Below are positions 4,394 through 53,249 of a DNA stretch of 64,000 nucleotides, one piece after another. The translations under genes were made by a program, and so were the position numbers. The notes beneath the pieces were generated by a model. It ran no database searches, was not told where the DNA came from, and worked only from the letters and a program-made list of their open reading frames with translations. This DNA is from a virus, in the IMG/VR virus record IMGVR_UViG_3300028829_004004, positions 1,352-65,351 of that record; one strand, 5' to 3'. The number at the start of each line of letters is the position of its first letter. Within the stretch, counting starts at the first letter, position 1.

Positions 4394-5062
4394 TTACTCC
4401 CTCCCTAAAAACTTGAGTACCTGTTGTGACGCTGCCCACCCGGCTGACTCCTTGAAGGTAAGCTCAGGGAACTTCTGCTTGAACACACTAAGGGGATCAT
4501 GCATGAAGACATCGAAGGATACCTCGCTCCATCGACCGTACTGCAAACGTTTGCACCACTTCGCCAAGGTCCCCCTATACTTCTCAACTAACTTGGTAGC
4601 TCGGTCGTTGGTAAGGAGATCCCGCACTAGGAAGCTATCCAGAATTCGGTTAAGCCTTCTACGTACATGGACGATGTGACACTTGATCCCCCGAGCTTCT
4701 AACTCTCTCACGTATACAGGTAGAGTTAGGGACAACCGAGGGTCTTTGATACAGATAGCGGGACTGTCGTAACGATCAAGGATATCCTTCACCTGCTGGT
4801 CATACTTTGTCTCCGTCATTAGGTGGCTGAAGTCTGTCTCTAACTCAGATAGAACCCAAGTCCCCGCCTCACCAAGGATAGTGTCATTGAGTCGCACTAC
4901 CCTCTCATCCTCGAAGAACCCTTTGGGGTTGCCGCGGTCTGCGGGGATAAGGTCCAGCATCTGAACCGGCTCCCCTTTGTAGTGAGCACGGTAGAAAGTA
5001 CCAGCCAGTGCCGAGGTACCAGACCGACCCACACCTACCAAAAGATAGCATACCTCTGTCAT
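4394..5062 (-). CDS. Sulfotransferase-family protein
   Basis: N-terminal GVGRSGTSAL PAPS-binding loop, NPKGFFED and IKDPRL motifs. Confidence 0.75.
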   Translation of the reverse strand: MTEVCYLLVGVGRSGTSALAGTFYRAHYKGEPVQMLDLIPADRGNPKGFFEDERVVRLNDTILGEAGTWVLSELETDFSHLMTETKYDQQVKDILDRYDSPAICIKDPRLSLTLPVYVRELEARGIKCHIVHVRRRLNRILDSFLVRDLLTNDRATKLVEKYRGTLAKWCKRLQYGRWSEVSFDVFMHDPLSVFKQKFPELTFKESAGWAASQQVLKFLGRE

Positions 5063-6156
5063 GTTAAAGCTCCCACCACAATCGCGTAGAATACTTCGTA
5101 TGCATCCAAATCATTTTGGAACTCTTTGATTAACCCATCCTTGCCTTTGGCCGATAGGGTAACCCCCGCCTCGGGTAGGTCGATCTTCCAAACCCCGGCC
5201 CCTACTTTGATTAAATCAAGTTTGCGCCCGTACTTGACAAGAGACTCAATGTTGTTGATCTCCCCTGCCTCATACGTTGCCAGTAGCTTGCCCGCCTTTC
5301 TACTCTCGTAGTCCAAGAGGGCTAGGTGAAAGGTGTACTCCAGCTTAGGAGTGAACGTCTTGTTCTTGTGGGCAGTGCCATGGATTTCCACGTAAGCTGA
5401 CTTCGCCTCACCGGGAGCGTCATGTACTTTCGCCTTAGTGTTGCGGAGGTGAATAGCCGGGTGGAACAGTTGCCCCTTACCACCGGGGAGGGTAGATGGG
5501 TCACCAAACATAACACCAATCTTCTCCCGCATTTGGTTTACACAAATGAGGGCGGGTCCTGTGCCCCGCTTCTCGGTTAACCCGTTGGTCCACTTGCGGA
5601 AACCCTTGTTCATCAGTCGCGCATGAAGTCCGGGGTTCTGCTTCTCAGCCCCATCCTCGATCTCCTTAGAGGGCAGAGTAGCCTCAATACTGTCAAGGAT
5701 TATGAGGTCAACGGTGTTCTCCCGGATGGCGGTGTCAATCAAATTGATGGCGTCCTCCCCACAAAGGGGCCACACCACTAAGTTTCCTTCCGGGTCCATC
5801 CCATTTTGGATTGCCCACTTGACATCCAGTGACCCTTCCGTCTCTATCCATAGAGCCGATCCCGGAATGAACTCCTCGCACTCACATGGGTAACGCTCCT
5901 TGCAGGTGTGGCAGTAGTTCACAACCTCAGAGCACGCCCTGAGTAGGATGGTTGTTTTCCCGGAGGACTCTGGACCATACACGAGACTCGTGCGGTTGAA
6001 GGGCCAGCCACCTCCAAGGGCGAGGTCAAGTTCAAGAGAACCTGAGCGGAAGCGTTTCAGCTTGGGGATCTTACCTGCCATAGCTGATAACTCCCCGTCA
6101 TACTTCTTGTTTATACGGTCTCGGAGATTCTTCAACCGTGTCTCTGTGCTCTCCAC
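5059..6156 (-). CDS. recA: RecA-like recombinase
   Basis: SGSLELDLALGGG, Walker A GPESSGKTT, IILDS, NQMREKIGVMFGDPSTLPGG. Confidence 0.95.
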   Translation of the reverse strand: MESTETRLKNLRDRINKKYDGELSAMAGKIPKLKRFRSGSLELDLALGGGWPFNRTSLVYGPESSGKTTILLRACSEVVNYCHTCKERYPCECEEFIPGSALWIETEGSLDVKWAIQNGMDPEGNLVVWPLCGEDAINLIDTAIRENTVDLIILDSIEATLPSKEIEDGAEKQNPGLHARLMNKGFRKWTNGLTEKRGTGPALICVNQMREKIGVMFGDPSTLPGGKGQLFHPAIHLRNTKAKVHDAPGEAKSAYVEIHGTAHKNKTFTPKLEYTFHLALLDYESRKAGKLLATYEAGEINNIESLVKYGRKLDLIKVGAGVWKIDLPEAGVTLSAKGKDGLIKEFQNDLDAYEVFYAIVVGALT

Positions 6157-6157
6157 T

Positions 6158-6736
6158 TCAGTTCACCAGTTCCGACATCTCGACTTCCATTAGTGCTGCT
6201 ACCTTCTCCTTAGCGAAAACCGCGGCAGTGTCAATGTCTTCGACTCTACAGGGAGTAGTGATTTCAATGTACACCTTGGCACCATTGTAGTCACCAAGGT
6301 TTACCGTGTTACCATAACCAAACCGGACACTCGCAGGGGCATGATTAACTGGGGCTACTTCAATGTGGTCTTCATCACTGCTCTCTTCAATGACCTTGCC
6401 GTAGTGTGTCTTCTCCCGGTGGGTAGTCACTGTAGCTACTGCCTCTTGGACTTCCTGAACTGGCTCGGCCTCTTCTGCCACGGGTTCCTCTTCGGGTTCC
6501 TCCGCCACTAGGACAGGAGCAGGGTCAGGTGGGTTGATGACTGCCCCGAACTCATCCGTTTCAGGGGGAAGCTCTGGGACGGTGGTCTCTTCTTCCACTG
6601 GTGCTTCTTCTACAGTACTTGCCTCGGCCTCTTGCTTCTTACGAAGCTCTTCTAACCGTTGCAACTTCTTCTGCCGTAATTTCTCTAGGGCTTCTGCTCG
6701 TTCTCTCATGGGGTCTTCCTTACTTTTTTCGTTCAC
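6158..6736 (-). CDS. Hypothetical protein, Glu/Pro-rich linker with C-terminal NLGDY domain
   Basis: Long ORF tightly packed between recA and helicase. Confidence 0.7.
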   Translation of the reverse strand: MNEKSKEDPMRERAEALEKLRQKKLQRLEELRKKQEAEASTVEEAPVEEETTVPELPPETDEFGAVINPPDPAPVLVAEEPEEEPVAEEAEPVQEVQEAVATVTTHREKTHYGKVIEESSDEDHIEVAPVNHAPASVRFGYGNTVNLGDYNGAKVYIEITTPCRVEDIDTAAVFAKEKVAALMEVEMSELVN

Positions 6737-8078
6737 GTGTGAAATCTAACTTGGTATACACCTTCTCGCGTGCGCCGAAAAGGCCGTTGGCATAGGGGAT
6801 TGCGCGGTCTACCACATCGACAACCATTGGAGGCTTCTTCTCCTTGGTAGGTCGCTGGATACGGCCTACCATCTGAGCGACCCTACTACGAGGTGTAGCA
6901 AGAACCAAAGTATCAAGGGAAGGAATATCGGTACCCTCTCCAAACATCCCATAAGTTGCCAGAACAACTCTGCACTCATCAGCCGTCGCACTCTCCATGT
7001 CGTCAGTAGAACGATATTTGACTATCTTACTTCCTGACGAGGATAAGAGACCCTCAAGGCTGTCTAGTTGTTTTACTCTGTCGGTGAGCACAAGTGTTTT
7101 CCTACCGGCCTTGATTGCTCTCATGCAAACGTTTGCAATCATCTTGTTCCGGTCTTCGTCTTCTGCTATCATGGTTATCAACTTGGAGGTGTTCAGCCCA
7201 CCTCCGCGGATCTTGGGGGGCGTCTTCTTTGCCTCCCACTCCATGACATAGTAACTACCTTTAACGACTTGCCCGCGCATTGTAACAAGCTGCGGACCAA
7301 TACTCCAATCGAGTAAGCACTTCAACCCATCCCGGCGATCCGGGGTAGCTGTGAGACCCAGCTTATAGCGGGCTGAGAAACTGTTAGCTACCTTGGAAAA
7401 GGTCTGGCTAGGGACACGATGTGATTCGTCGGACACAAGGAAACCAAAGTGGTCGAAGAACCCCGAGGCTCGGAAACTTTCGAGACGAGAGTACAAGGTC
7501 TGGAAGGTTGCGATCACAATGTGAGCATCCTTGACGCATGGCTCATTAGCCCGCACCTTGACTACCCGCGCCTCAGGCATGAACCTGTTGATCTCCCTCT
7601 CCCACTGGTCCATGAGGTCGCACTTGTGGACGAGGACAATAGTCGGGGTCTTCATACGTGCGATAAGGTGCAGGGCAGTGATAGTCTTACCCGCGCCGCA
7701 GGTTGCTTTGATCCAACCTCCGGTCTGCCCTTCACGGTACGCTTTGATTACCGCCTCGTCAGCTACCTGCTGGCCCGGTCGCAATAGCCCCTCAAACTTT
7801 GGGGGTCTAGTCCATGGTCCTTTCAGGTGGCTATATTGGGTACAATCAAACACTTCAAACCGGGTGAATGTTTTGAAGAAGTACTCACGTGGCATACCAA
7901 ACCACACATCGCCACCTAGTGTGTTCCTCTCATAATGAGTAGAGACCTCCGGTGGTACCCCTTTTGCGTAGGGGTTCTCGACTACCAATGTAAGGTCTTC
8001 CTTCAACCGCTCAATACCTGTAGAGCCAAGGTCAACAGCGCGCGCCCACGCTAATCTATCTAAGGTTACTCGTATCAC
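6720..8078 (-). CDS. SF2 DEAD/DEAH-box helicase (UvsW/XPB-like)
   Basis: TCGAGKT, DESH, TAT, GEGTD and QMVGRIQR motifs. Confidence 0.9.
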   Translation of the reverse strand: MIRVTLDRLAWARAVDLGSTGIERLKEDLTLVVENPYAKGVPPEVSTHYERNTLGGDVWFGMPREYFFKTFTRFEVFDCTQYSHLKGPWTRPPKFEGLLRPGQQVADEAVIKAYREGQTGGWIKATCGAGKTITALHLIARMKTPTIVLVHKCDLMDQWEREINRFMPEARVVKVRANEPCVKDAHIVIATFQTLYSRLESFRASGFFDHFGFLVSDESHRVPSQTFSKVANSFSARYKLGLTATPDRRDGLKCLLDWSIGPQLVTMRGQVVKGSYYVMEWEAKKTPPKIRGGGLNTSKLITMIAEDEDRNKMIANVCMRAIKAGRKTLVLTDRVKQLDSLEGLLSSSGSKIVKYRSTDDMESATADECRVVLATYGMFGEGTDIPSLDTLVLATPRSRVAQMVGRIQRPTKEKKPPMVVDVVDRAIPYANGLFGAREKVYTKLDFTRERKK

Positions 8079-8105
8079 TTCTGATTCTCCTAATTACTTT
8101 CTTGT

Positions 8106-8133
8106 ACTATACACCCTCAACCCCTAGAGTCAA
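8106..8133 (-). promoter_or_regulatory. Putative sigma70-type promoter upstream of helicase
   Basis: TTGACT-N16-TATAGT on the - strand in the intergenic gap; same TTGACT-N13-GTGTATA layout as at 16640-16667. Confidence 0.5.
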
Positions 8134-8136
8134 GTG

Positions 8137-9981
8137 CTATTTCGCCTCAGACCAGTTGTCATGCACCCCTATATCCGCGTCCATGGGTACAGTCATTGGG
8201 TGAGCGTAGCGCATGTGGTACAGGATGATGTCACACACCTCGCTGGTTAGCACTTCCTCACACTCGAAGACTACCTCGTCGTGTACCTCTGCTACTAACC
8301 ACACCCCCTTCCCCCAAAGGTCCAACTCTCTGAGGTCCTCTTTGATATCACGCACCGCAGTCATCAAGTAATGGGCCTCAGCCGCCTGAATGGGTGCGTT
8401 AACCGCTTGGTTCAGGAAGTCTGCTCTCTTGTGCCGGTGGCTGCTTGCGGCATCTATCTCCTCACGGTCATACCTCCGTCGCCTGCCCCATGGGTCGGCA
8501 ATGAAGTAGTTGTATATCACCTGCTTCTCAACATCGTGGTGCCACTTCTGTATACCTGTGTAAGCACTGAAAAAACTGCGCTGAACACGTTCCCATTCCT
8601 TCAAGGGGCCACCGTATTCCTTGTGTAGCTTCCACGGGGTAGCTCCAAAGCTCATAGCAAAGTTGCAGTTCTTCCCAATCTTGCGGGAAGTGTGGGCAAT
8701 ATCGGCTGTCTGCTGGTGGACATCCAGCCCATGGTAAAACCCCTTGAATCCCTTGTCTTTCTCCTTGTTGGAGATAGTCCTCTTGTCTGCTTCCACCCCA
8801 CACTTAGGACACTGGGTTAGGAGGGAGGTACTGTGCCCGGTTACCCGGCATATCTTACACTGCCACGTCGTGTATGCCTCCCGCATCTTCTCATCTCCTG
8901 AGATGTCTGCGATGATCCGAAGCTGCGCTTGGGACAGGTCGGCTACTAATAGCTTACACCCCTCACGGGTACCAATACATTGGCGGATACTCAGAGGACC
9001 GGGAACTACAGGTACGTTCTGCATATTGGGTTTTGAAGACCTCTTGCGCCCGGTGTAAGTGGTCTGCCAGAAGGAGGGGTGAATCCTACCGTCGATAGAT
9101 TCTGTACACTTCTTCTGGAAAGGGTTCAGGTAAGTGTTCAGCATCTTTGATGCATTGCGGTACTCAAGGATGTCCTTACAGAAAGGGTACTTCTCTGACA
9201 AGGTAGTGAGTATCTTCTGGTCTACCTTGTACCCACCCTTTTCTGTAAGCTCCACGTCCTTCTTTGGGAGGCGCACATCATCGAACAACCGCTCCCCCAA
9301 CTTAGGGGAGCGGAGAGAGACATCATACCCTATGTGTGGGTACACCCGCATCTCTGCATCATGGGCTTTCTTCTTGTATGCTTCGACTAGCTCGGGCATG
9401 TGGTTCCAGTGTACTCCATTACGTTCCATATCCGCAACGTACTTGGTCCCATCCATATACAACCAAAACACATCAAGGACTCCGTCCTCCTCAAGGCCGG
9501 GACGCACTACCTCCTGCCACAGACGGAGAGTTTGGCGCACGTCGTCCCGTGCATACTGGGCAAACTTCTTTACATCCGCTTCAGGGATAGCTGGTTCAAG
9601 TAGAGGGAGACCATGGAGGGGGTTAGCCTCGACAAACTCCACCATCTTGTAGCCAAAGTGTTTCTTTACTGAGTATTTAAGTCCTAGTTTCTTCTCGTTT
9701 TCATCTACCAGATTTAGCCCCATCATTGTGTCAGCAATGGCGAGATCATCATACGAATCTATGTACCCTGCAATGAGCAATCCGTTGAGGTCAAACTTCA
9801 GATTGTGCCCAACCCAAAGGTCATCTTTGATAGCCCCTAATTGTGCGTGGATTTCGTCTGGATCACGGGTGTAAATCGTGGCTTCCTCAGTACCATCAGT
9901 GATAGCCAGCCCTTCCATCCTCCATGTCGGGCAGTACAACTCGGTATGATTCGACTCAATGTCTATGCAGATATCTCTCAT
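8137..9981 (-). CDS. polA: Family A DNA polymerase with 3'-5' exonuclease domain
   Basis: Exo I DIE, HNLKFD, motif A DLSQAQLR, motif B KNCNFAMSFG, motif C VHDE; no 5'-3' exonuclease domain. Confidence 0.93.
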   Translation of the reverse strand: MRDICIDIESNHTELYCPTWRMEGLAITDGTEEATIYTRDPDEIHAQLGAIKDDLWVGHNLKFDLNGLLIAGYIDSYDDLAIADTMMGLNLVDENEKKLGLKYSVKKHFGYKMVEFVEANPLHGLPLLEPAIPEADVKKFAQYARDDVRQTLRLWQEVVRPGLEEDGVLDVFWLYMDGTKYVADMERNGVHWNHMPELVEAYKKKAHDAEMRVYPHIGYDVSLRSPKLGERLFDDVRLPKKDVELTEKGGYKVDQKILTTLSEKYPFCKDILEYRNASKMLNTYLNPFQKKCTESIDGRIHPSFWQTTYTGRKRSSKPNMQNVPVVPGPLSIRQCIGTREGCKLLVADLSQAQLRIIADISGDEKMREAYTTWQCKICRVTGHSTSLLTQCPKCGVEADKRTISNKEKDKGFKGFYHGLDVHQQTADIAHTSRKIGKNCNFAMSFGATPWKLHKEYGGPLKEWERVQRSFFSAYTGIQKWHHDVEKQVIYNYFIADPWGRRRRYDREEIDAASSHRHKRADFLNQAVNAPIQAAEAHYLMTAVRDIKEDLRELDLWGKGVWLVAEVHDEVVFECEEVLTSEVCDIILYHMRYAHPMTVPMDADIGVHDNWSEAK

Positions 9982-10961
9982 CGTGATTCCTCAGATTGGT
10001 GCCAGTTCCATGCTGTCTCGACAATGCTGTTGAGGGTCTCAAACCTTGGGGACCATCCCAATAAGTTTCTCGCCTTGTTGGCACACGCCACTAGAACGGG
10101 TGGGTCACCTTGGCGTCTACTGGATACCTTGAACTGGGGAGGTACTCCCGCGACTTGTTCTACTGCTGTGATAACTTGACGAACGGAGTGACCAGTGCCA
10201 AGGCCGAGGTTGAAGGCATCCGTTTCCCCTCCCTTGAGTAGGTAGTCAAGAGCGAGTAGGTGGGCATCCGCGATGTCGGAAACGTGAGTGTAGTCGCGGA
10301 CGCACGTGCCGTCAGGGGTTGGGTAGTCTGTCCCATGTATGGTGATGTGATCTGGTGTGGTAGCAGCCCGGATGACAAGAGGGATAAGGTGGGTTTCCGG
10401 GGAGTGCGCTTCTCCTACCTCCCCGTCGGGGTCCGCCCCCGCGGCGTTGAAGAAGCGAAGAACAACACAGCGGAGAGAGTGGGTGTGGCAGTGCCATTTG
10501 ATCATTCTCTCAGCGAGTAACTTAGACTCACCATACGGGCTGGTGGGATCTTGCGGTGCAGCCTCTTGGATTGGTTGTGAACTGGGGGCACCGTAGGTGG
10601 CACAGCTAGAAGAGAATATCATATGGCGAACAGCGGCCCGCCGCATTGCTTCGAGGAGACCCAAGGTATTAACCGTGTTGTTACGGAAATACTTGTCGGG
10701 TTCCTTCATGGACTCACCCACATAAGCATCCGCGGCACAGTGTACGACTGCGAGAATGGCGTAGACCTCGAAAGTCCGTTGCAGAAGCTGGGTGTCTGCG
10801 AGGTCCCCCACAACGAGAGGCCCCCACTTGACAGCCCATGGGTTACCGTTACGGAAATCGTCGTAAGTAACCGGGGTGAACCCAGCTTGCGCCAAGTGCT
10901 TGCACACCTGACTACCAATGTAACCCGCCCCACCAGTGACTAGAATGTTTTGGCCTCTCAT
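9978..10961 (-). CDS. galE: UDP-glucose 4-epimerase
   Basis: GGAGYIGS, FSSSCATYG, YGESK, ETHLIP, DGTCVRDYTHV. Confidence 0.95.
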   Translation of the reverse strand: MRGQNILVTGGAGYIGSQVCKHLAQAGFTPVTYDDFRNGNPWAVKWGPLVVGDLADTQLLQRTFEVYAILAVVHCAADAYVGESMKEPDKYFRNNTVNTLGLLEAMRRAAVRHMIFSSSCATYGAPSSQPIQEAAPQDPTSPYGESKLLAERMIKWHCHTHSLRCVVLRFFNAAGADPDGEVGEAHSPETHLIPLVIRAATTPDHITIHGTDYPTPDGTCVRDYTHVSDIADAHLLALDYLLKGGETDAFNLGLGTGHSVRQVITAVEQVAGVPPQFKVSSRRQGDPPVLVACANKARNLLGWSPRFETLNSIVETAWNWHQSEESR

Positions 10962-10962
10962 C

Positions 10963-11256
10963 CTACTCAGTTAGCATCCATTTAGGTATCTCAAGAGTAG
11001 CACGAATAGGGGATACCTCCTCTCCTCTGTCAAAGGAGTGAATCCACTCCTTTACCCTGTCAGGGTTCTCAATGATAGGGTCTGCATCTGGGTGGCTGTC
11101 CTCCCGACAATAGCTTATGTAGGGACCGGCTACACCGAAGTATATATCCTTCTTCACTCTCCTCCCAATCGCTAGAGAGAAAGGGCAGAAGCACACCGAT
11201 CTTGGTTGCCCCATATCAATATCATTCTGGGTGACGTTGACTCTTACTTTTACCAT
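10963..11256 (-). CDS. Hypothetical phage protein
   Basis: Probable start at ATG 11256 with GGAG RBS (MVKVRVNVTQNDIDMG...CPFSLAI). Confidence 0.6.
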   Translation of the reverse strand: MVKVRVNVTQNDIDMGQPRSVCFCPFSLAIGRRVKKDIYFGVAGPYISYCREDSHPDADPIIENPDRVKEWIHSFDRGEEVSPIRATLEIPKWMLTE

Positions 11257-11312
11257 CTCTACTCCCGTTACCTCTACTACCATTTCATTTACCCTTTGCA
11301 AACGTTTGCATT

Positions 11313-11504
11313 TCAGTTCTTCTTCCCAAATTCTCGGTCGAGGCGCGCTTGCCAATCAGAGTTTATCCTGTCAAGCTCATCCGCTAACTCTCGTAGGTTA
11401 CGGGCAGCATAGGCACCACCTGTATTCCACCAGTAGATAAGACCGTCCACGTCTTGTACAAACTCCTCGCGTTCATACGCTAATTCCACGATGCTCACTG
11501 CCAT
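11313..11504 (-). CDS. Hypothetical protein
   Basis: Start overlaps upstream stop; operon packing. Confidence 0.55.
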   Translation of the reverse strand: MAVSIVELAYEREEFVQDVDGLIYWWNTGGAYAARNLRELADELDRINSDWQARLDREFGKKN

Positions 11505-12331
11505 TAGATTATGCCCTTAGCGATGTCGATCATCCCTTCTGCCCAGTGGTCAGTAGAGAAGCGGGCACGGACGAACTCCATCCCCTTCTTAGCAATCGCT
11601 GCACGCTCCTCAGGATTGTTCAGGTAGTAGTCAATCTTGTCGGAGAAATCATCGACGCCTTGGAACGTACCGAGGTGTTCGCCGGGGGTGAACGTGTCAG
11701 TGATCTCGTCGCACTCATTTGTTAGGATGAACCCTCCTGCTGCCATGATCTTAAACAACCGATCTGAGAACCCACCCAAACCCGGTTGAGTGAAGTTCAA
11801 GTTGATACGAGTCTCTGACACAGCAATGGCGTGCTCCTCCGGGGTGGCCTTACGACGGAACGGGAACTCCCGTGTATTCTTGTACTCCCTCCGGTGCCAG
11901 TTCTTGATCCGTCCTAGAAAGAGGACATCCCTAACTTTGGGAACGTCGCGGGGGTAGTCAAAGAGAGGATCGTACCCCTCAAACACATGGGGGACACTAA
12001 GCTGCTCCGCTAGTAAACGACTGTGATGTACCATCACCGTAGCGTTTCTCGCCCGCCGACGCTCACGCCCCGACCAGTGGTCTGTACCATCATTGTACCA
12101 ATAGATTGTAGGGATCTTATCAGTCAACTCCTTGACATGTACAGGGTGGAACCCTCGGTACTTCCACACAATTGCGACATCCTTACCGGGGATGTTGTCC
12201 ATCAAGTCTTTGTACACCTGAGGGTTACCGTTGTACTCAACAGGAGTTACCTCATGTCCTAGTTTCTCAAGAGCGCGGACCTTCCCTGCCCCTACCCCTG
12301 TTGCAAACCTACCGCCGAAAACGATCTTCAT
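11504..12331 (-). CDS. GT-B glycosyltransferase (CgeB / Glyco_trans_1_2-like)
   Basis: RINLNF...SDRLFKIMAAGGFILT...KIDYYLNNPEERAAIA C-terminal signature. Confidence 0.85.
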   Translation of the reverse strand: MKIVFGGRFATGVGAGKVRALEKLGHEVTPVEYNGNPQVYKDLMDNIPGKDVAIVWKYRGFHPVHVKELTDKIPTIYWYNDGTDHWSGRERRRARNATVMVHHSRLLAEQLSVPHVFEGYDPLFDYPRDVPKVRDVLFLGRIKNWHRREYKNTREFPFRRKATPEEHAIAVSETRINLNFTQPGLGGFSDRLFKIMAAGGFILTNECDEITDTFTPGEHLGTFQGVDDFSDKIDYYLNNPEERAAIAKKGMEFVRARFSTDHWAEGMIDIAKGII

Positions 12332-12358
12332 TTTACCATACCTTTAAGAGTCAGTGTT

Positions 12359-12414
12359 AAAAAAAGACCCGCGATTTCAGCGTGGCTCAGGAACAGGACG
12401 CTTACTCTCGCGGG
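12359..12414 (-). terminator. Rho-independent terminator-like hairpin after ssb
   Basis: CCCGCGA/TCGCGGG stem with inner AGCGT/ACGCT stem, followed by a T7 run on the - strand. Confidence 0.65.
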
Positions 12415-12427
12415 GGTTAAGATTATA

Positions 12428-13099
12428 CTAGAAAGGAGGGTCGTCCAACACAGGCGCCGCGGATGCTGCCCCCACTGGGGCGCCACCAAACTGAGTGACT
12501 ACCTCGTTCATCGCATCCACATTAGGCATGAGGATCTCTGCGAAGTCGTAGTCGTCGGTGTCCTTGAACTCCCAGTTGTCAAGGTCAATCATCTTACGGA
12601 ACTCGAAGTCCTCACCTACTCCGGGAGACTTGGGGTCTTTGCCACGGAAGATGCGGAAAGCCGCGCCGCGAAGCGTGTGTCCATCTTCTTTGAGAAGACG
12701 ACGCTTACGCTCAATGGTTTCCCATACCCCTGACTTGGCAATGAACAGGCGCTTGGTGAACCGGTGTTCGTTGCCATCCTTGTCTGTCCATGGGGAGCAG
12801 TCCACTACCGTGAACGCTGCCGCTTGGTACTTGTTGAAGCTCAAGTCACAGTAGCCACAAGGCTCATCCAAGGGGGACATACACGTTCCCCAATTGCGGT
12901 AGGAACTACCAGACTTCCAGTTGTGCTCCAAGTAAATGAAGGGTTCCTCTGTGAGGAATACCACGGACTTTTCGCTGTCCTTAGGCATCCAGAAGCGGTT
13001 GCCCGCAGGGGATCGTTTGCCGCCGGACTCTTTTGCCTTGCGCTCTTTTTCCATAGCTGCACTGCCTGCGTCGAATCCGCGTTTGAACCAGTTTTTCAT
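12428..13099 (-). CDS. Phage single-stranded DNA-binding protein (gp32-like)
   Basis: RFW...VVF...EH...C...CGYC Zn site, acidic tail ending DDPPF, located in replication module. Confidence 0.7.
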   Translation of the reverse strand: MKNWFKRGFDAGSAAMEKERKAKESGGKRSPAGNRFWMPKDSEKSVVFLTEEPFIYLEHNWKSGSSYRNWGTCMSPLDEPCGYCDLSFNKYQAAAFTVVDCSPWTDKDGNEHRFTKRLFIAKSGVWETIERKRRLLKEDGHTLRGAAFRIFRGKDPKSPGVGEDFEFRKMIDLDNWEFKDTDDYDFAEILMPNVDAMNEVVTQFGGAPVGAASAAPVLDDPPF

Positions 13100-14082
13100 A
13101 ATGATATTGTCTCTCTAAACTCGTGTAATTGTAACTCGTTGGGGTCTTTGTTTGGGGGTAGTTTCTCGGTCAAATCTTCACAGCATGGTACTCTCCTTTC
13201 AAGTAGTTTGTGGGCTTGGTTGGCGCCTTTATTGCCAGCCGTGTCGTTGTCGAACATAACCCATGTTAGTAATTGTTCAAGTTCGATTTGGTCAATTTGT
13301 TCTCGGCTTATTGAACAGCCGCTGATAGCCACTGGCATTACTATCCCCGCCAACCCTAGCTTTGTTAGATGCTGCCAACAGCGCATGGCGTCAAATGGAC
13401 CTTCAACCAGTATGTATGTTTTCGTTTCTCCCTCATAGTAAACGGGGGAGACAAAGCCTAACTCTGTCCTCGTTCCCCAGTAATGTTTCCACTTGTTGTC
13501 ATCCTCACCGAGGGTTCTCCCACTTGCTCCTACAAACTTACCGGCAAGGGTATACACCGGGAACACTACCCGGTTATCCCTCTCATCCCACCGGCACCCA
13601 AAGTCGCGCCAAGTACGGGAGTCGAACCCTCGCTGAATGAGGTAATGCCCACCGGGATTGCAAACGGTTGCATTGGGGAGGTTGGTGTCAAACCAATTCC
13701 AGAGAGGGTCCATGTCATACACCTCCCTCACGTACTGTGGAGTACCTAGCCCACCTACAACGCGGCTTATTAAGGTGGATGGTCTACTCTCCTCAGCCAT
13801 CAATGCCTGCCCCATCTCCCTAAGCTGGTCGCTCCCGCTGTAGATGGAGAGGGTGGTGAACAGTTGCCAGAACTTCCCCTTCTGCCCGCAACCGAAGCAG
13901 CGAAACGTGGAGGCACCATCATCATGGACTGACACAGTGAAGGAGGGATTAGCGTCTGACCCCTCATGTGTCCACTGTGCGAATGGGCAAGAGAACTTCA
14001 AGTGATTGTTATTCTTCTGGATCGACAACTTGTCGGTTAGTCCTGCTGCCAACACATAATCTGTTACTTGATTCAGGTCCAT
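13096..14082 (-). CDS. DNA primase (Zn finger + TOPRIM)
   Basis: CPF...H...CFGCG Zn finger, LVEGPFDA and FDNDTAG TOPRIM motifs. Confidence 0.9.
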   Translation of the reverse strand: MDLNQVTDYVLAAGLTDKLSIQKNNNHLKFSCPFAQWTHEGSDANPSFTVSVHDDGASTFRCFGCGQKGKFWQLFTTLSIYSGSDQLREMGQALMAEESRPSTLISRVVGGLGTPQYVREVYDMDPLWNWFDTNLPNATVCNPGGHYLIQRGFDSRTWRDFGCRWDERDNRVVFPVYTLAGKFVGASGRTLGEDDNKWKHYWGTRTELGFVSPVYYEGETKTYILVEGPFDAMRCWQHLTKLGLAGIVMPVAISGCSISREQIDQIELEQLLTWVMFDNDTAGNKGANQAHKLLERRVPCCEDLTEKLPPNKDPNELQLHEFRETISL

Positions 14083-14084
14083 GC

Positions 14085-15341
14085 CTAGTACGCCCCTTCT
14101 TCAAAGAGTTCTACCTTCTCAGAGTAGTCAAACTTCTTGTAGTCCCAGTTGGTCTTAAAGGAAGCTGTCCTCTTCTCCGCATCACGTAGCTTGAGGAACT
14201 GCCAGTTCATCTCCTTAGCCAACTCAAGGTCCTCGTTTTGTGAGAGGGCTACAACCACGTCAGGGTTGATCAACCACTCCTTAGCGTAGCGGACATTCCA
14301 CCTCTCAGTGGACCCCTTGGTCATCCCCTTACCTGTCTCTGCTGCGTCCCCTAGCTGAGTGGTGACAACCCATGGGATGTTGGTGACTATTACCGCCCGC
14401 TGTAACTCTTCGATTACCCGGACCTGTTTCTCCCAATCGCCGCGGGTGCCTTTGGCTCGGAGTCGGTACCCACCGTCAAGCAATACCATGCGAGGTTTGT
14501 ACCTGTAGCAAAGAGACAGGATGTCGTCTACGCAATTCACATACTGACTATCAGCAATCTTCACGTCGCCACCGGGGGAATCCATCTCCTCTGCCATCGC
14601 GTTAGCCCACCGCTCTTCCTGTGCTGGGCTGAGTGTACCGTCACGTAGCTCAGTGAAGTCTAGTTGGTAACGGACGGAGTCGAGGCGGCGAGAGATACGT
14701 GCTTGTGCCATCTCAGTTGACACTATCAGAACACACTCGTCCTCTTTTATCTTCCGAGAGGCGTCAAGTGCTGAGATGATAAGACTCCACGTCTTGCCCA
14801 CCGTGGTGAAGCCCGCTAATACGTACAGGGTAGCCTCACACCACCCACCTGTCCACTTATCGAAACTCTCCCACATGGAGGGGATGGAACCCTCAGACTC
14901 CTTCGCCTTGTAATACGCTTCAAGACGCTCATCTGCGCTGAGTTTGAATGACTTGACCGAATCCTCTTTGACTAACTCTGCCTGAAGCCCATCGAGTTGG
15001 GAGAAAAGAGCGAGGGCTTCCTCTACCTCGTTCTTTGAAACCTTATCCATACCCTCATCTAAGATGGGGGACATCTGCTGTAGCACATGTCTCTTCTTGA
15101 TGAGAGTGATTAGGTGGTCAAGGTCCCCCTCTTCCACCTCATGGGTTAGGTCTATTGGGAACTTATCCCCCACCTCGAAGGTGGTGGGAGTGCGGCCTCG
15201 TACACGGCACTCTCGGAGGTAAGTGAAGGCGTCTCGCGACTCACCAAGGAAGTGGTCATCCGAGACGCCCGAGGATATTACCTGCTCATAGGAGGAGTAT
15301 GCCAGCACATGCTGAATGATTCTTGAGCCGATCGCTCCCAT
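14085..15341 (-). CDS. dnaB: DnaB-like replicative helicase
   Basis: LAGFTTVGKT Walker A, VSTEM, LLDGGY, TTQL motifs. Confidence 0.85.
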   Translation of the reverse strand: MGAIGSRIIQHVLAYSSYEQVISSGVSDDHFLGESRDAFTYLRECRVRGRTPTTFEVGDKFPIDLTHEVEEGDLDHLITLIKKRHVLQQMSPILDEGMDKVSKNEVEEALALFSQLDGLQAELVKEDSVKSFKLSADERLEAYYKAKESEGSIPSMWESFDKWTGGWCEATLYVLAGFTTVGKTWSLIISALDASRKIKEDECVLIVSTEMAQARISRRLDSVRYQLDFTELRDGTLSPAQEERWANAMAEEMDSPGGDVKIADSQYVNCVDDILSLCYRYKPRMVLLDGGYRLRAKGTRGDWEKQVRVIEELQRAVIVTNIPWVVTTQLGDAAETGKGMTKGSTERWNVRYAKEWLINPDVVVALSQNEDLELAKEMNWQFLKLRDAEKRTASFKTNWDYKKFDYSEKVELFEEGAY

Positions 15342-15916
15342 TAGTGGATACCTAGACGTTTAGACATTCTCGTTACTCGCTCTGCTCGGAAGTCCTTCCC
15401 GCCGATCTTGACCGGGTAGGTCGCCTCCCTACAAGCCTCATATAGGCCCTTCGCCTGTTTCTCTAACTGAGACAAAGGCATGTTTGTGGTCAGGATAGTA
15501 GGCTTCAACTCTGAGGTGCGGTACCTGAGAAGCTGCTCCACACGTCCTAAGGAATAGATGCGAGTCTTGTCATGGATTAACTCATCAATCACCAGCAACT
15601 CTGCTTCCTCCATCCTGTGGACGTAGGACTCGTACTCGTCAAACCGCGTGCTCTCAACGTAGTACTCTGCGATCTTATCGAATCGCACAAACAGCGCGGT
15701 CTTCGCTGCCTCTATGATTTTCTTTAGGGCAACACAGGCTATCGCGGTTTTCCCTGAGCCGTGGTCCCCCCAGAGGAGTAACCCCTGCCCCTCTGAAACC
15801 ATACGCGGTAACTCATTTAGATAGCCGGTGACTATCTCTGAACTTATCTGCTCTTCAAGGGCACCCTCTCCCCAGTACAGCTTGGGTACCCTTGCCCGTT
15901 GTAAATACTTACTCAC
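15341..15916 (-). CDS. DnaC/IstB-like helicase loader ATPase
   Basis: GDHGSGKT, LLVIDEL, LRYR...PTILTTN. Confidence 0.85.
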   Translation of the reverse strand: MSKYLQRARVPKLYWGEGALEEQISSEIVTGYLNELPRMVSEGQGLLLWGDHGSGKTAIACVALKKIIEAAKTALFVRFDKIAEYYVESTRFDEYESYVHRMEEAELLVIDELIHDKTRIYSLGRVEQLLRYRTSELKPTILTTNMPLSQLEKQAKGLYEACREATYPVKIGGKDFRAERVTRMSKRLGIH

Positions 15917-16616
15917 TGAATCCTGCCTCCGGTGAATCGTCTTCTTTGAATCGCTTTAGCAGTGTCCGCTCATCAATAAAACCTGTGACCATAGTGTCAC
16001 GGATTCGCCCAAAGAAGGACCCGGTGGCTAGTAAGTTGAGGGAAGGGGTTCCCTTCACCTTGAACTTCTCTTTGATCTCATCCCAGTTTTCCATGTAGAA
16101 GTGGACTGTCTTAACGTACCCGTCGAAGTCATCTGCCAACCAAGTTAGCAAACGTTTGCAATAGACACTTCCCATCTTGCTGCTGAGGGGGTAGGTTTTC
16201 TCGAACTTCTCCTCGTAGGCTTCCTTGAATACGTTGAAGGCTTTGCCTGAGGAGTGGCGTTTCTTCTTACCGAAAGCAGGGGCCGCTTTCTCAGTCAGTA
16301 TCGAGTTCAACCCTGCGTTCCTGCTCTTAGTGAGTTTCTCTTTTACTGACTCTGCTATCTTCGTTGCCGGGATAATGTGGTACTCCATCTCGGTTGCTTC
16401 ATACTGAATAGGTCGGTTGTCTTCCGACAAAAGGCGTCGCCTCTTTAAGTCGGATATAGAAGCGGATACCCGACTAGGTAGCATCCCTAGTTGGGTGCTC
16501 ATCTCCTTTACTGAGGGCGTCTCCTCAAAGCAACACAGAAGAGCATATACTGCAATTGAGTTAGGGTTAGCTGTTGCGAACGCACCGGCCTGCAACGCCT
16601 GTAGGAAGTGTTCCAT
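15909..16616 (-). CDS. Putative replication initiator (N-terminal winged HTH)
   Basis: HTH-like PSVKEMSTQLGMLPSRVSASISDLKRRRLL; lies directly upstream of the DnaC-like gene as in lambdoid/SPP1-type modules. Confidence 0.6.
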   Translation of the reverse strand: MEHFLQALQAGAFATANPNSIAVYALLCCFEETPSVKEMSTQLGMLPSRVSASISDLKRRRLLSEDNRPIQYEATEMEYHIIPATKIAESVKEKLTKSRNAGLNSILTEKAAPAFGKKKRHSSGKAFNVFKEAYEEKFEKTYPLSSKMGSVYCKRLLTWLADDFDGYVKTVHFYMENWDEIKEKFKVKGTPSLNLLATGSFFGRIRDTMVTGFIDERTLLKRFKEDDSPEAGFSE

Positions 16617-51243: not shown

Positions 51244-52056
51244 ATGAACATCTACATCGCAGGACCGATGCGGTCCAAACCTGAATTTAATTTCCCTGCC
51301 TTCTTTGAGGCGGCTGAGTGGCTGTCTAGCTTAGGGCTGAATCCCATTAACCCCGCGGAGTTCGACGTTGACCGGGGGTTCGATCCCCGCAGTGGAAGAG
51401 GGCAGTTGGTTACCCCTGAGTTCATCGCGGACGCTATCCGGCGAGACGTGGGTCTCATCCTAGATGAGGCGGAAGGGATTCTAATGCTCCCCGGTTGGAC
51501 TGAGAGTATCGGAGCGTCAGCAGAGTACGCCCTCGCACGATGGAAAGAATTGCCGGTGTTCAAGCGAGATGGTGACCTCCTCGTAGGAGAGGAAACCATA
51601 GGCCCACTTGATATGGAGTACTCTGAAGAGAAGAAGCAGAAGTTCACCCCTGACCCGGTGGTCAACACATCTGTCCCGAAGGGAGATCACTTATTCAATG
51701 CCAACTGGCCATTCACTGACCCCTCAGTTGAAGAGGAGGAAGACGTTCTTGAGGAGGCGCTTCGTCTCACAAGAGGCGACCGGCAGAACCAGTATGGCCC
51801 ACCAGACCAAGACTTCCGACGTACCGCAGATATGTGGACCGCTTTGAAGGGGGTGAAGTTTGAGCCAAAGGATGTTGCCATGTTCACTATCTGTATGAAG
51901 CTCTCTCGGGAGACGCACCAGAAGAAACGTGATAACTGGGTGGACATCGCAGGGTACGCCCGGTGTGGTCACATCTGCGCTGAGGCCGCGGCACAGCGGG
52001 AAGTGGAACAGGACGAGGAGTGGAATTACTGCCGTATCAATCGAGGTGCAGAGTGA
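51244..52056 (+). CDS. DUF4406-like / DUF6378-like fusion (nucleotide metabolism associated)
   Basis: IYIAGPM...FNFPAF N-domain; LEEA...GDRQNQYG...DNWVDIAGY C-domain; names from recall. Confidence 0.7.
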   Translation: MNIYIAGPMRSKPEFNFPAFFEAAEWLSSLGLNPINPAEFDVDRGFDPRSGRGQLVTPEFIADAIRRDVGLILDEAEGILMLPGWTESIGASAEYALARWKELPVFKRDGDLLVGEETIGPLDMEYSEEKKQKFTPDPVVNTSVPKGDHLFNANWPFTDPSVEEEEDVLEEALRLTRGDRQNQYGPPDQDFRRTADMWTALKGVKFEPKDVAMFTICMKLSRETHQKKRDNWVDIAGYARCGHICAEAAAQREVEQDEEWNYCRINRGAE

Positions 52057-52262
52057 AACGTAAGAAAAGACATAACGACCCTGACCTTCGTAGTAAGGCA
52101 ATGTACATTAGCGTTAGCCTCCCGGTATTACAGGCACTAGAGGGAGTACGGCCTCTGCTTAACGGAAGTTCAGGGGCTTACCTCGGGGTGTATAAACATG
52201 CGGCAGCTACCCTCTGCCGTGAATTGGAGTGGGAAACTTATGGGGAGGTGCAAGGTGATTAA
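52053..52262 (+). CDS. Hypothetical protein
   Basis: GTGA overlap with upstream stop. Confidence 0.4.
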   Translation: MKRKKRHNDPDLRSKAMYISVSLPVLQALEGVRPLLNGSSGAYLGVYKHAAATLCRELEWETYGEVQGD

Positions 52263-52593
52263 GGAATTTGACGATATCGTAGAATACCTACTTGACAATG
52301 GGTGGACACAATACACAGCATACGATACTAAGGTAGGGTGTCAGGACTTCTACAAGGTCTTCCCCACGCCTCACGGGTGTAGGGGGACAGGAAACCCCGG
52401 AATAGAAATCACTTGCCGGGTACAGCGGTTCATGGATGTAACTGTGTTTAGTTTCACCCTGCAAGGGGAGACTGTAAACGGAGGGTTCAAACTGAGTCGG
52501 TATGACCTTACTGATGATTTCGCTGAGGCTATCAAGGTGACCAACGACATGGTTGCCCTGTGGGAAATAGCAAACATACCGAGGGTTGGATAA
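52198..52593 (+). CDS. Hypothetical protein
   Basis: Operon packing; start probably GTG 52255. Confidence 0.5.
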   Translation: MRQLPSAVNWSGKLMGRCKVIKEFDDIVEYLLDNGWTQYTAYDTKVGCQDFYKVFPTPHGCRGTGNPGIEITCRVQRFMDVTVFSFTLQGETVNGGFKLSRYDLTDDFAEAIKVTNDMVALWEIANIPRVG

Positions 52594-53249
52594 TGAGTAT
52601 TCCACACGTAGAGTTAGTTACACACACCCCCAACCCTGAGTACATGATGGCTAGGGTTGCTAGGGTCTCTAATCCTAAGAACCAAGATAACCCTAAGTTT
52701 GGGAAATTATTAAGGTATATGATAAGGGAAAAGCATTATTCACCCTTTGAACACGCCAGCCTCACGCTGAAGGTCACGACGACATTGGACATAGCGACAC
52801 AGATCCTCCGTCACCGTAGCTTCACATTCCAACAACTCTCTCGTCGTTATGCAGGGGACAAAGAGGCGCCAGTGGTGATGCACATACCTGAGCTTCGGGC
52901 ACCCCACCCCAAGAATCGTCAGAAGTCGGTGGAGACCCTCCCCCAACCGATTCAGGACATGTACGCAAGACATATCAATCACCTCTTCACATTAGCGGAG
53001 GAACTCTATCAAGATATGCTTGAGGATGGGGTTGCTAAGGAGTGTGCCCGAGCAGTACTCCCACAGGCAACGCAGACTACCCTCCACATGACCGGGTCCT
53101 GCCGTTCGTGGTTGCATTACATTGCCCTGCGTGGCGGGAACGGCACACAGAAAGAACACATGGCAGTGGCCGAGCAAGCCAAGGGGATCTTTCGAGAAGT
53201 ATTCCCCACCGTCGCCGGAGCGGTGGATAACCTGAACTGGGAGATTTGA
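52593..53249 (+). CDS. thyX: FAD-dependent thymidylate synthase
   Basis: HYSPFEHA, RHRSFTFQQLSRR signature, ECARAVLP. Confidence 0.95.
   Translation: MSIPHVELVTHTPNPEYMMARVARVSNPKNQDNPKFGKLLRYMIREKHYSPFEHASLTLKVTTTLDIATQILRHRSFTFQQLSRRYAGDKEAPVVMHIPELRAPHPKNRQKSVETLPQPIQDMYARHINHLFTLAEELYQDMLEDGVAKECARAVLPQATQTTLHMTGSCRSWLHYIALRGGNGTQKEHMAVAEQAKGIFREVFPTVAGAVDNLNWEI

Follow-up and report, generated by a model that had tools for sequence, protein, structure and literature searches.

The window, as we call the whole 64,000-nucleotide stretch of viral DNA analysed here, encodes a family A DNA polymerase (PolA) that is probably the ordinary proofreading, Klenow-type replicative polymerase of its marine phage, with a rewired nucleotide pocket. 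The Glu710–Tyr766 pair (Klenow numbering), described as invariant in family A (PMC3715850), reads Gln and Phe in this enzyme (Q353 and F445), and a Glu stands at position 852 on the Q helix. Judged from the alignment, the pair appears to be the only departure from family A, which would make the enzyme a variant that is still a family member. Because a Glu was gained on the neighbouring helix, and because the same swap is repeated in many unrelated polymerases of phages and bacteria, we consider that the pocket was probably rewired and not opened to RNA or modified nucleotides.

The polymerase gene (positions 8137–9981, minus strand, 614 aa) matched the family A profile PF00476 with an E-value of 1.4e-66 and a score of 225 bits against a cut-off of 34.3. 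It was the only PolA in the IMG/VR record, a 65.5-kb virus contig that is 64% complete. The AlphaFold model had a pLDDT of 95.4, and its top fold matches were the Bacillus fragment and M. smegmatis Pol I, with TM-scores of about 0.79. Aligning the protein with M. smegmatis and Taq Pol I set the residue register. In addition to the intact residues below, R754 and K758 of the motif B RxxxK signature (R433 and K437) and F762 (F441) were kept, and the clade to which the enzyme belongs has TGRxR in place of TGRLS. The features of the gene are as follows.

8137..9981, minus strand: PolA, with a 3'-5' exonuclease and a polymerase domain and no 5' nuclease
9502..9981, minus strand: 3'-5' exonuclease domain, with D7, E9, D64, Y143 and D147 present
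9046..9048, minus strand: R312, equivalent to R668 of the TGR motif, intact
8938..8940, minus strand: D348, equivalent to D705, the catalytic Asp of motif A, intact
8923..8925, minus strand: Q353 (CAG), equivalent to the Klenow steric gate E710, in motif A DLSQAQLR
8731..8865, minus strand: zinc-ribbon-like insert of about 45 residues (CxxC...CPxCG) between motifs A and B, found in the whole clade with any residue at 710
8647..8649, minus strand: F445 (TTT), equivalent to Klenow Y766, in motif B KNCNFAMSFG
8386..8400, minus strand: N528 and Q532, equivalent to the Q-helix minor-groove residues N845 and Q849, intact
8377..8379, minus strand: E535 (GAG), the Q-helix residue that corresponds to Klenow A852 and the proposed relocated carboxylate
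8275..8283, minus strand: motif C HDE (H881-D882-E883), intact, with D568 as the catalytic Asp

A first-pass annotation, made from the nucleotide letters, had reported Gln at 710 and Phe at 766 next to a conserved F762 and HDE motif, and all four were confirmed by codons and alignment. It did not contain the third change, Glu at 852; in the clade alignment, Q710 members read QAAE, QALE or QASE on the Q helix versus QxxA in the others. Sequencing error, which that annotation had wanted checked as possible GAG and TAT reads, was ruled out. The same codons occurred in contigs from two marine runs, which may themselves be the source of the window. Nine relatives at 33–80% identity also carried the same residues, with synonymous codons (CAG or CAA at 710, TTT or TTC at 766) among those whose DNA was read. 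Decoding of CAG as Glu was likewise rejected, since invariant Gln positions are also CAG, four relatives have CAA at 710, and no tRNA genes were found in the window's record. Compared with its relatives, the window's polA had a dN of 0.16 with dS saturated, and the gene is under strong purifying selection.

We then considered the clade defined by the zinc-ribbon-like insert, sampled as 85 non-redundant members. E852 was present in 10/10 Q710 members and in 0/75 E710 members, while F766 was present in 10/10 Q710 members, yet also in 6/75 E710 members. The ten Q710 members did not form one clade, as E710/Y766 (E/Y) enzymes fall with the window's branch, and an AU test in which the trait columns were masked rejected a single origin of the Q710/F766/E852 (Q/F/E) state (p = 0.0005, LG+G4 without mixture on a quick tree). 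Given the split of the Q710 members on the tree and this rejection of one origin, the three sites switched together at least twice, through either two gains or a gain and a reversion.

The insert itself gave weak rubredoxin and NZF matches below the cut-off and would be predicted to bind metal. It is shared, together with TGRxR, by at least 80 uncultured phage PolAs, which often have no Gly after Tyr766 (YL, YM, YN, YC). One sub-branch (P0162, P0170, P0203 and P0226) has a motif A of DYSSxEY and a motif B of KxxSF...F, with E710 kept and F766. The best isolate-phage matches of the window PolA were at 26–27% identity among the matches listed. A literature search found no published description of a Cys4-insert PolA clade, and a protein search of GTDB genomes found no member of the window's phage clade.

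The DNA pattern DYSQxQLRxxAH retrieved Q710 polymerases from outside the clade, both from other phages and from GTDB genomes. With 42 matches in 185,579 genomes, the Q710 state appears to be rare but recurrent; the pattern DLSQxQLR had no match in IMG/VR. The GTDB carriers comprised Pol I of a small-genome alphaproteobacterial lineage, of Saccharibacteria and of other Patescibacteria, and a PolA-like protein of Desulfomonilaceae. Nearly all Q710 polymerases from this search had E852. Among 433 non-redundant PolAs (reverse-search rows left out), E852 was found in 48/49 enzymes with a non-acidic residue at 710 versus 13/384 with an acidic one, although these counts do not give prevalence, since the Q710 sequences were gathered by targeted search and the tables are enriched for them. 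Ala, Gly or Ser occupied 852 in 350 of the 384 acidic-710 enzymes. Ranked by MI-APC, the 353–535 pair was number 12 of 42,842 long-range pairs, a rank that is partly circular for the same reason, and 535 showed further coupling to two positions of the motif A helix, 352 and 356.

Corrected for descent, the association with 852 held and that with 766 did not. Q710 underwent 13 changes on a FastTree tree of 436 PolAs. Of 7 independent supported pairs, 6.1 on average had E852 tracking Q710 and 0.0 had it moving in the opposite direction (median p 0.03), compared with only 2.0/7 for F766 (p 0.5). Q710–F766 as an obligate pair was consequently rejected, with Tyr766 kept in 29/48 Q710 enzymes. The compensated Q/F co-substitution within a clade that the first-pass annotation had put forward therefore stands as far as compensation and co-variation go, and falls with respect to F766 as an obligate partner. 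In a reverse search of viral contigs for E852, Q710 was present in 4/4 hits in which motif A was present. Double-Glu enzymes (E710 with E852) were found near the Q710/E852 (Q/E) Pol I of Patescibacteria, in 12/30 and 1/30 relatives, the 12 being Saccharibacteria. Since most Q710 enzymes keep Tyr766 and such intermediates occur, the true coupling, as read from these comparisons, is between 710 and 852, with F766 apparently optional.

F766 alongside Q710 was found in nearly all viral or mobile cases and in few cellular ones, a skew that is not obviously explained by neutrality. Q710 without E852 was seen in one cyanobacterial MAG. In five bacterial MAGs the Q710/E852 enzyme was the only PolA found. 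Q710/Y766/E852 was the state of the single Pol I of an alphaproteobacterial lineage (L161, L164, L167, L169 and relatives), where 16/24 complete motifs among the relatives read this way, and also of the single Pol I of several Patescibacteria (L165, L176, L197, L175). In Desulfomonilaceae and related MAGs (L159, L162, L163, L174, L180, L183, L184, L186, L190, L200), a divergent PolA-like protein present in multiple copies combined Q710/F766/E852 with a motif C of HDS or HDA and a changed TGR motif; this protein is possibly carried by a mobile element. An unrelated PolA (P0190) had His710, Leu849 and Glu852.

The polA gene is embedded in a replication module, in which the SSB-like label is inferred from position and an acidic C-terminus.

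5059..16616, minus strand: replication module around polA, with DnaC-like loader, DnaB, TOPRIM primase, SSB-like gene, PolA, SF2 helicase and RecA-like gene

The order of the module genes was the same in Q/F/E and E/Y relatives. In this genome only, galE, two small ORFs and a glycosyltransferase gene lie between the SSB-like gene and polA (9978–12331, minus strand); L145 has a glycosyltransferase homolog after ruvC. A sulfotransferase-like gene follows recA (4394–5062, minus strand) and recurs in L081, L145 and L147, all in the first of two Q/F/E groups. It was absent from the E/Y loci examined, and the contigs of the second Q/F/E group were too short to judge. Inteins were present in DnaB of L145 (5602–8064) and in the SF2 helicase of L152 (12223–14490), and absent from the window's copies of both genes. 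On the early arm, the window encodes a DUF4406+DUF6378 fusion and ThyX (51244–53249, plus strand), whereas G099, an E/Y sister record, yielded neither.

In Klenow fragment, the pocket is formed by E710 and Y766. E710Q alone is a slow mutator, with a Kd2 for A-dTTP of 230 versus 0.83 µM, and it closes no better on rUTP (K2 of 0.056 versus 0.083 for wild type; PMC3715850, Table 1). Y766F is close to wild type, and the E710–Y766 bond itself plays a minor role (PMC3715850). Hence, a natural Q710 enzyme needs another change. In KlenTaq, E615, N750 and Q754 together hold one water on the incoming base (PMC6125688), and this shared water places residue 710 beside the Q helix. Along that helix, position 852 follows Q849 by three residues (i+3) and N845 by seven (i+7), and by helical periodicity E535 should share a face with N528 and Q532.

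These relationships suggest the following arrangement. Glu710 would normally do two jobs, its aliphatic stem blocking the ribose 2'-OH and its carboxylate organising the pocket through Tyr766, the minor-groove water, Asn845 and Gln849. In the Q710 enzymes, E852, one turn from Gln849, most likely supplies the carboxylate lost at 710; the same-sized Gln710 would retain the steric block, and the Tyr766 hydroxyl would become dispensable, allowing Phe. The likely path runs from E710/A852 through E710/E852 to Q710/E852, with Y766F as an optional addition, in a step order that we infer. The double-Glu enzymes are what would be expected of the intermediate and suggest that the path is permissive. We thus favour, with fair confidence, a relocated carboxylate that keeps an ordinary dNTP pocket, in which the contact as well as normal selectivity and fidelity are predicted from sequence.

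Compensation might instead be partial, in which case a working enzyme would admit more ribonucleotides or mismatches, with proofreading and host RNase HII cleaning up, and the leak would be either tolerated or useful under dNTP scarcity. The documented gate is E710, and its change to Gln by itself makes Klenow a mutator, but Gln matches Glu in size, and the E710Q mutant shows no preference for closing on rUTP (PMC3715850). The cellular Q/E carriers are mostly small-genome lineages (MAGs of 0.8–1.6 Mb), and all five bacterial MAGs tested encode RNase HII; this enzyme is, however, near universal, and the Q/E state has been kept across deep branches. The phage records tested yielded no ribonucleotide reductase, but neither did the E/Y sister record tested. 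In T7 RNA polymerase, position 710 is Gly and position 852 is perhaps Asp787, a resemblance that would speak for a leaky gate. Overall, we regard such a gate as unlikely.

A pocket adapted to a modified dNTP, such as 2-aminoadenine or a modified pyrimidine, would also account for an altered gate, and Y766F is the one active-site signature common to both DpoZ clades; the two papers that describe it nevertheless judged Y766F alone unlikely to set Z specificity (PMC8599892, PMC10201439). A complete 94-kb phage has a Q710/M766/E852 PolA and a PurZ-like gene (GSEGKG), with a dNMP kinase nearby. A complete 56-kb Q/F/E phage, on the other hand, had no PurZ, and ten of its ORFs, mostly from the replication region, gave a helicase, primase, clamp and methyltransferases. 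The DUF4406+DUF6378 gene of the window looks like one of nucleotide metabolism, and about a third of the phage genome is missing; the 64% complete record yielded neither a PurZ nor a ThyA-type synthase or a reductase, and the thymidylate synthase that it does encode is ThyX. We considered galE and the glycosyltransferase gene as partners of an altered pocket, a role left unsupported by the closest (79–80% identical) Q/F/E relatives, in which neither gene adjoins polA. Cellular Pol I enzymes are also Q/E, and the depletion of 6-mer palindromes, which is weak evidence, was 0.61, like that of E/Y relatives (0.36–0.92). The altered sugar or base selectivity suggested in the first-pass annotation thus found no direct support, although the Q710/E852 phage with the PurZ-like gene keeps the idea alive. 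As an explanation for the window's enzyme, we consider adaptation to a modified nucleotide rather improbable.

A carboxylate moved off the gate could also uncouple sugar selection from catalysis, so that Q710/F766/E852 polymerases would accept ribo- or modified nucleotides at full speed. The pocket would then resemble that of an RNA polymerase, its acid being carried by the Q helix, and non-standard genomes would occur among the phages. We hold the uncoupling and its RNA-polymerase-like form to be rather improbable as well. That the gene is decaying or inactive, or the product of assembly errors, is extremely improbable: E710Q alone does cripple Klenow (PMC3715850), but the metal ligands and exonuclease residues are all kept, independent samples show the same residues under synonymous codons, and polA is under strong purifying selection. 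The record, moreover, has no other PolA, and this one lies within the replication module.

A supposedly invariant Glu710 and its bond to Tyr766 have been dropped repeatedly in nature, nearly always together with a Glu at 852. If the carboxylate has been relocated as we propose, the natural swap would offer a means to separate the steric role of the gate carboxylate from its electrostatic role. Gate mutants usually lose activity. Position 852 is a second site, seemingly unused in the engineering of polymerases for modified nucleotides, and a Glu there may restore the activity of such mutants. It also follows that motif A alone is insufficient to call metagenomic PolAs inactive or RNA-permissive.

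Among known enzymes, the window PolA shares Phe at 766 with the DpoZ polymerases of phiVC8-like and Wayne-like phages, for which no change at 710 or 852 is given (PMC8599892, PMC10201439). No PurZ was found in the window's 65.5-kb record (64% complete), and none of the isolate-phage matches listed, at 26–27% identity, was named DpoZ. The 2023 reclassification into 19 PolA clusters notes Y766F in DpoZ, and its accessible text mentions neither a Gln gate nor a zinc insert (Czernecki et al. 2023). The 94-kb phage (G098), whose UDG-fused Q710/M766/E852 PolA lies close to the PurZ-like gene and the dNMP kinase (L298:7479–16306), is a candidate Z-genome phage, with a polymerase that would be unlike the described DpoZ signature. 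The laboratory Klenow mutants E710Q and Y766F carry the same two substitutions as the window PolA, studied singly (PMC3715850). A literature search that covered few subscription papers found no combination of E710Q, Y766F and A852E and no assay of an enzyme with this set of residues; nor did it turn up a polymerase mutated to A852E or A757E, or a Gln gate of natural origin.

T7-like single-subunit RNA polymerases likewise have no acid at the 710 position (G542), whereas the window PolA keeps a long side chain there and, unlike them, has a proofreading domain. D787 of T7 RNA polymerase, in the motif NFVHSQD, may correspond to position 852. The window PolA shows less than 30% identity to any isolated phage polymerase among the matches listed. 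It differs from Klenow, Bacillus fragment, KlenTaq and M. smegmatis Pol1 in having Gln for E710, Phe for Y766 and Glu for A852, as well as the zinc-ribbon-like insert, the TGRxR and HPSFW motifs and no 5' nuclease. It is like these enzymes in fold (TM-score of about 0.79), in its exonuclease and polymerase layout, and in D705, R668, R754, K758, F762, N845, Q849 and HDE.
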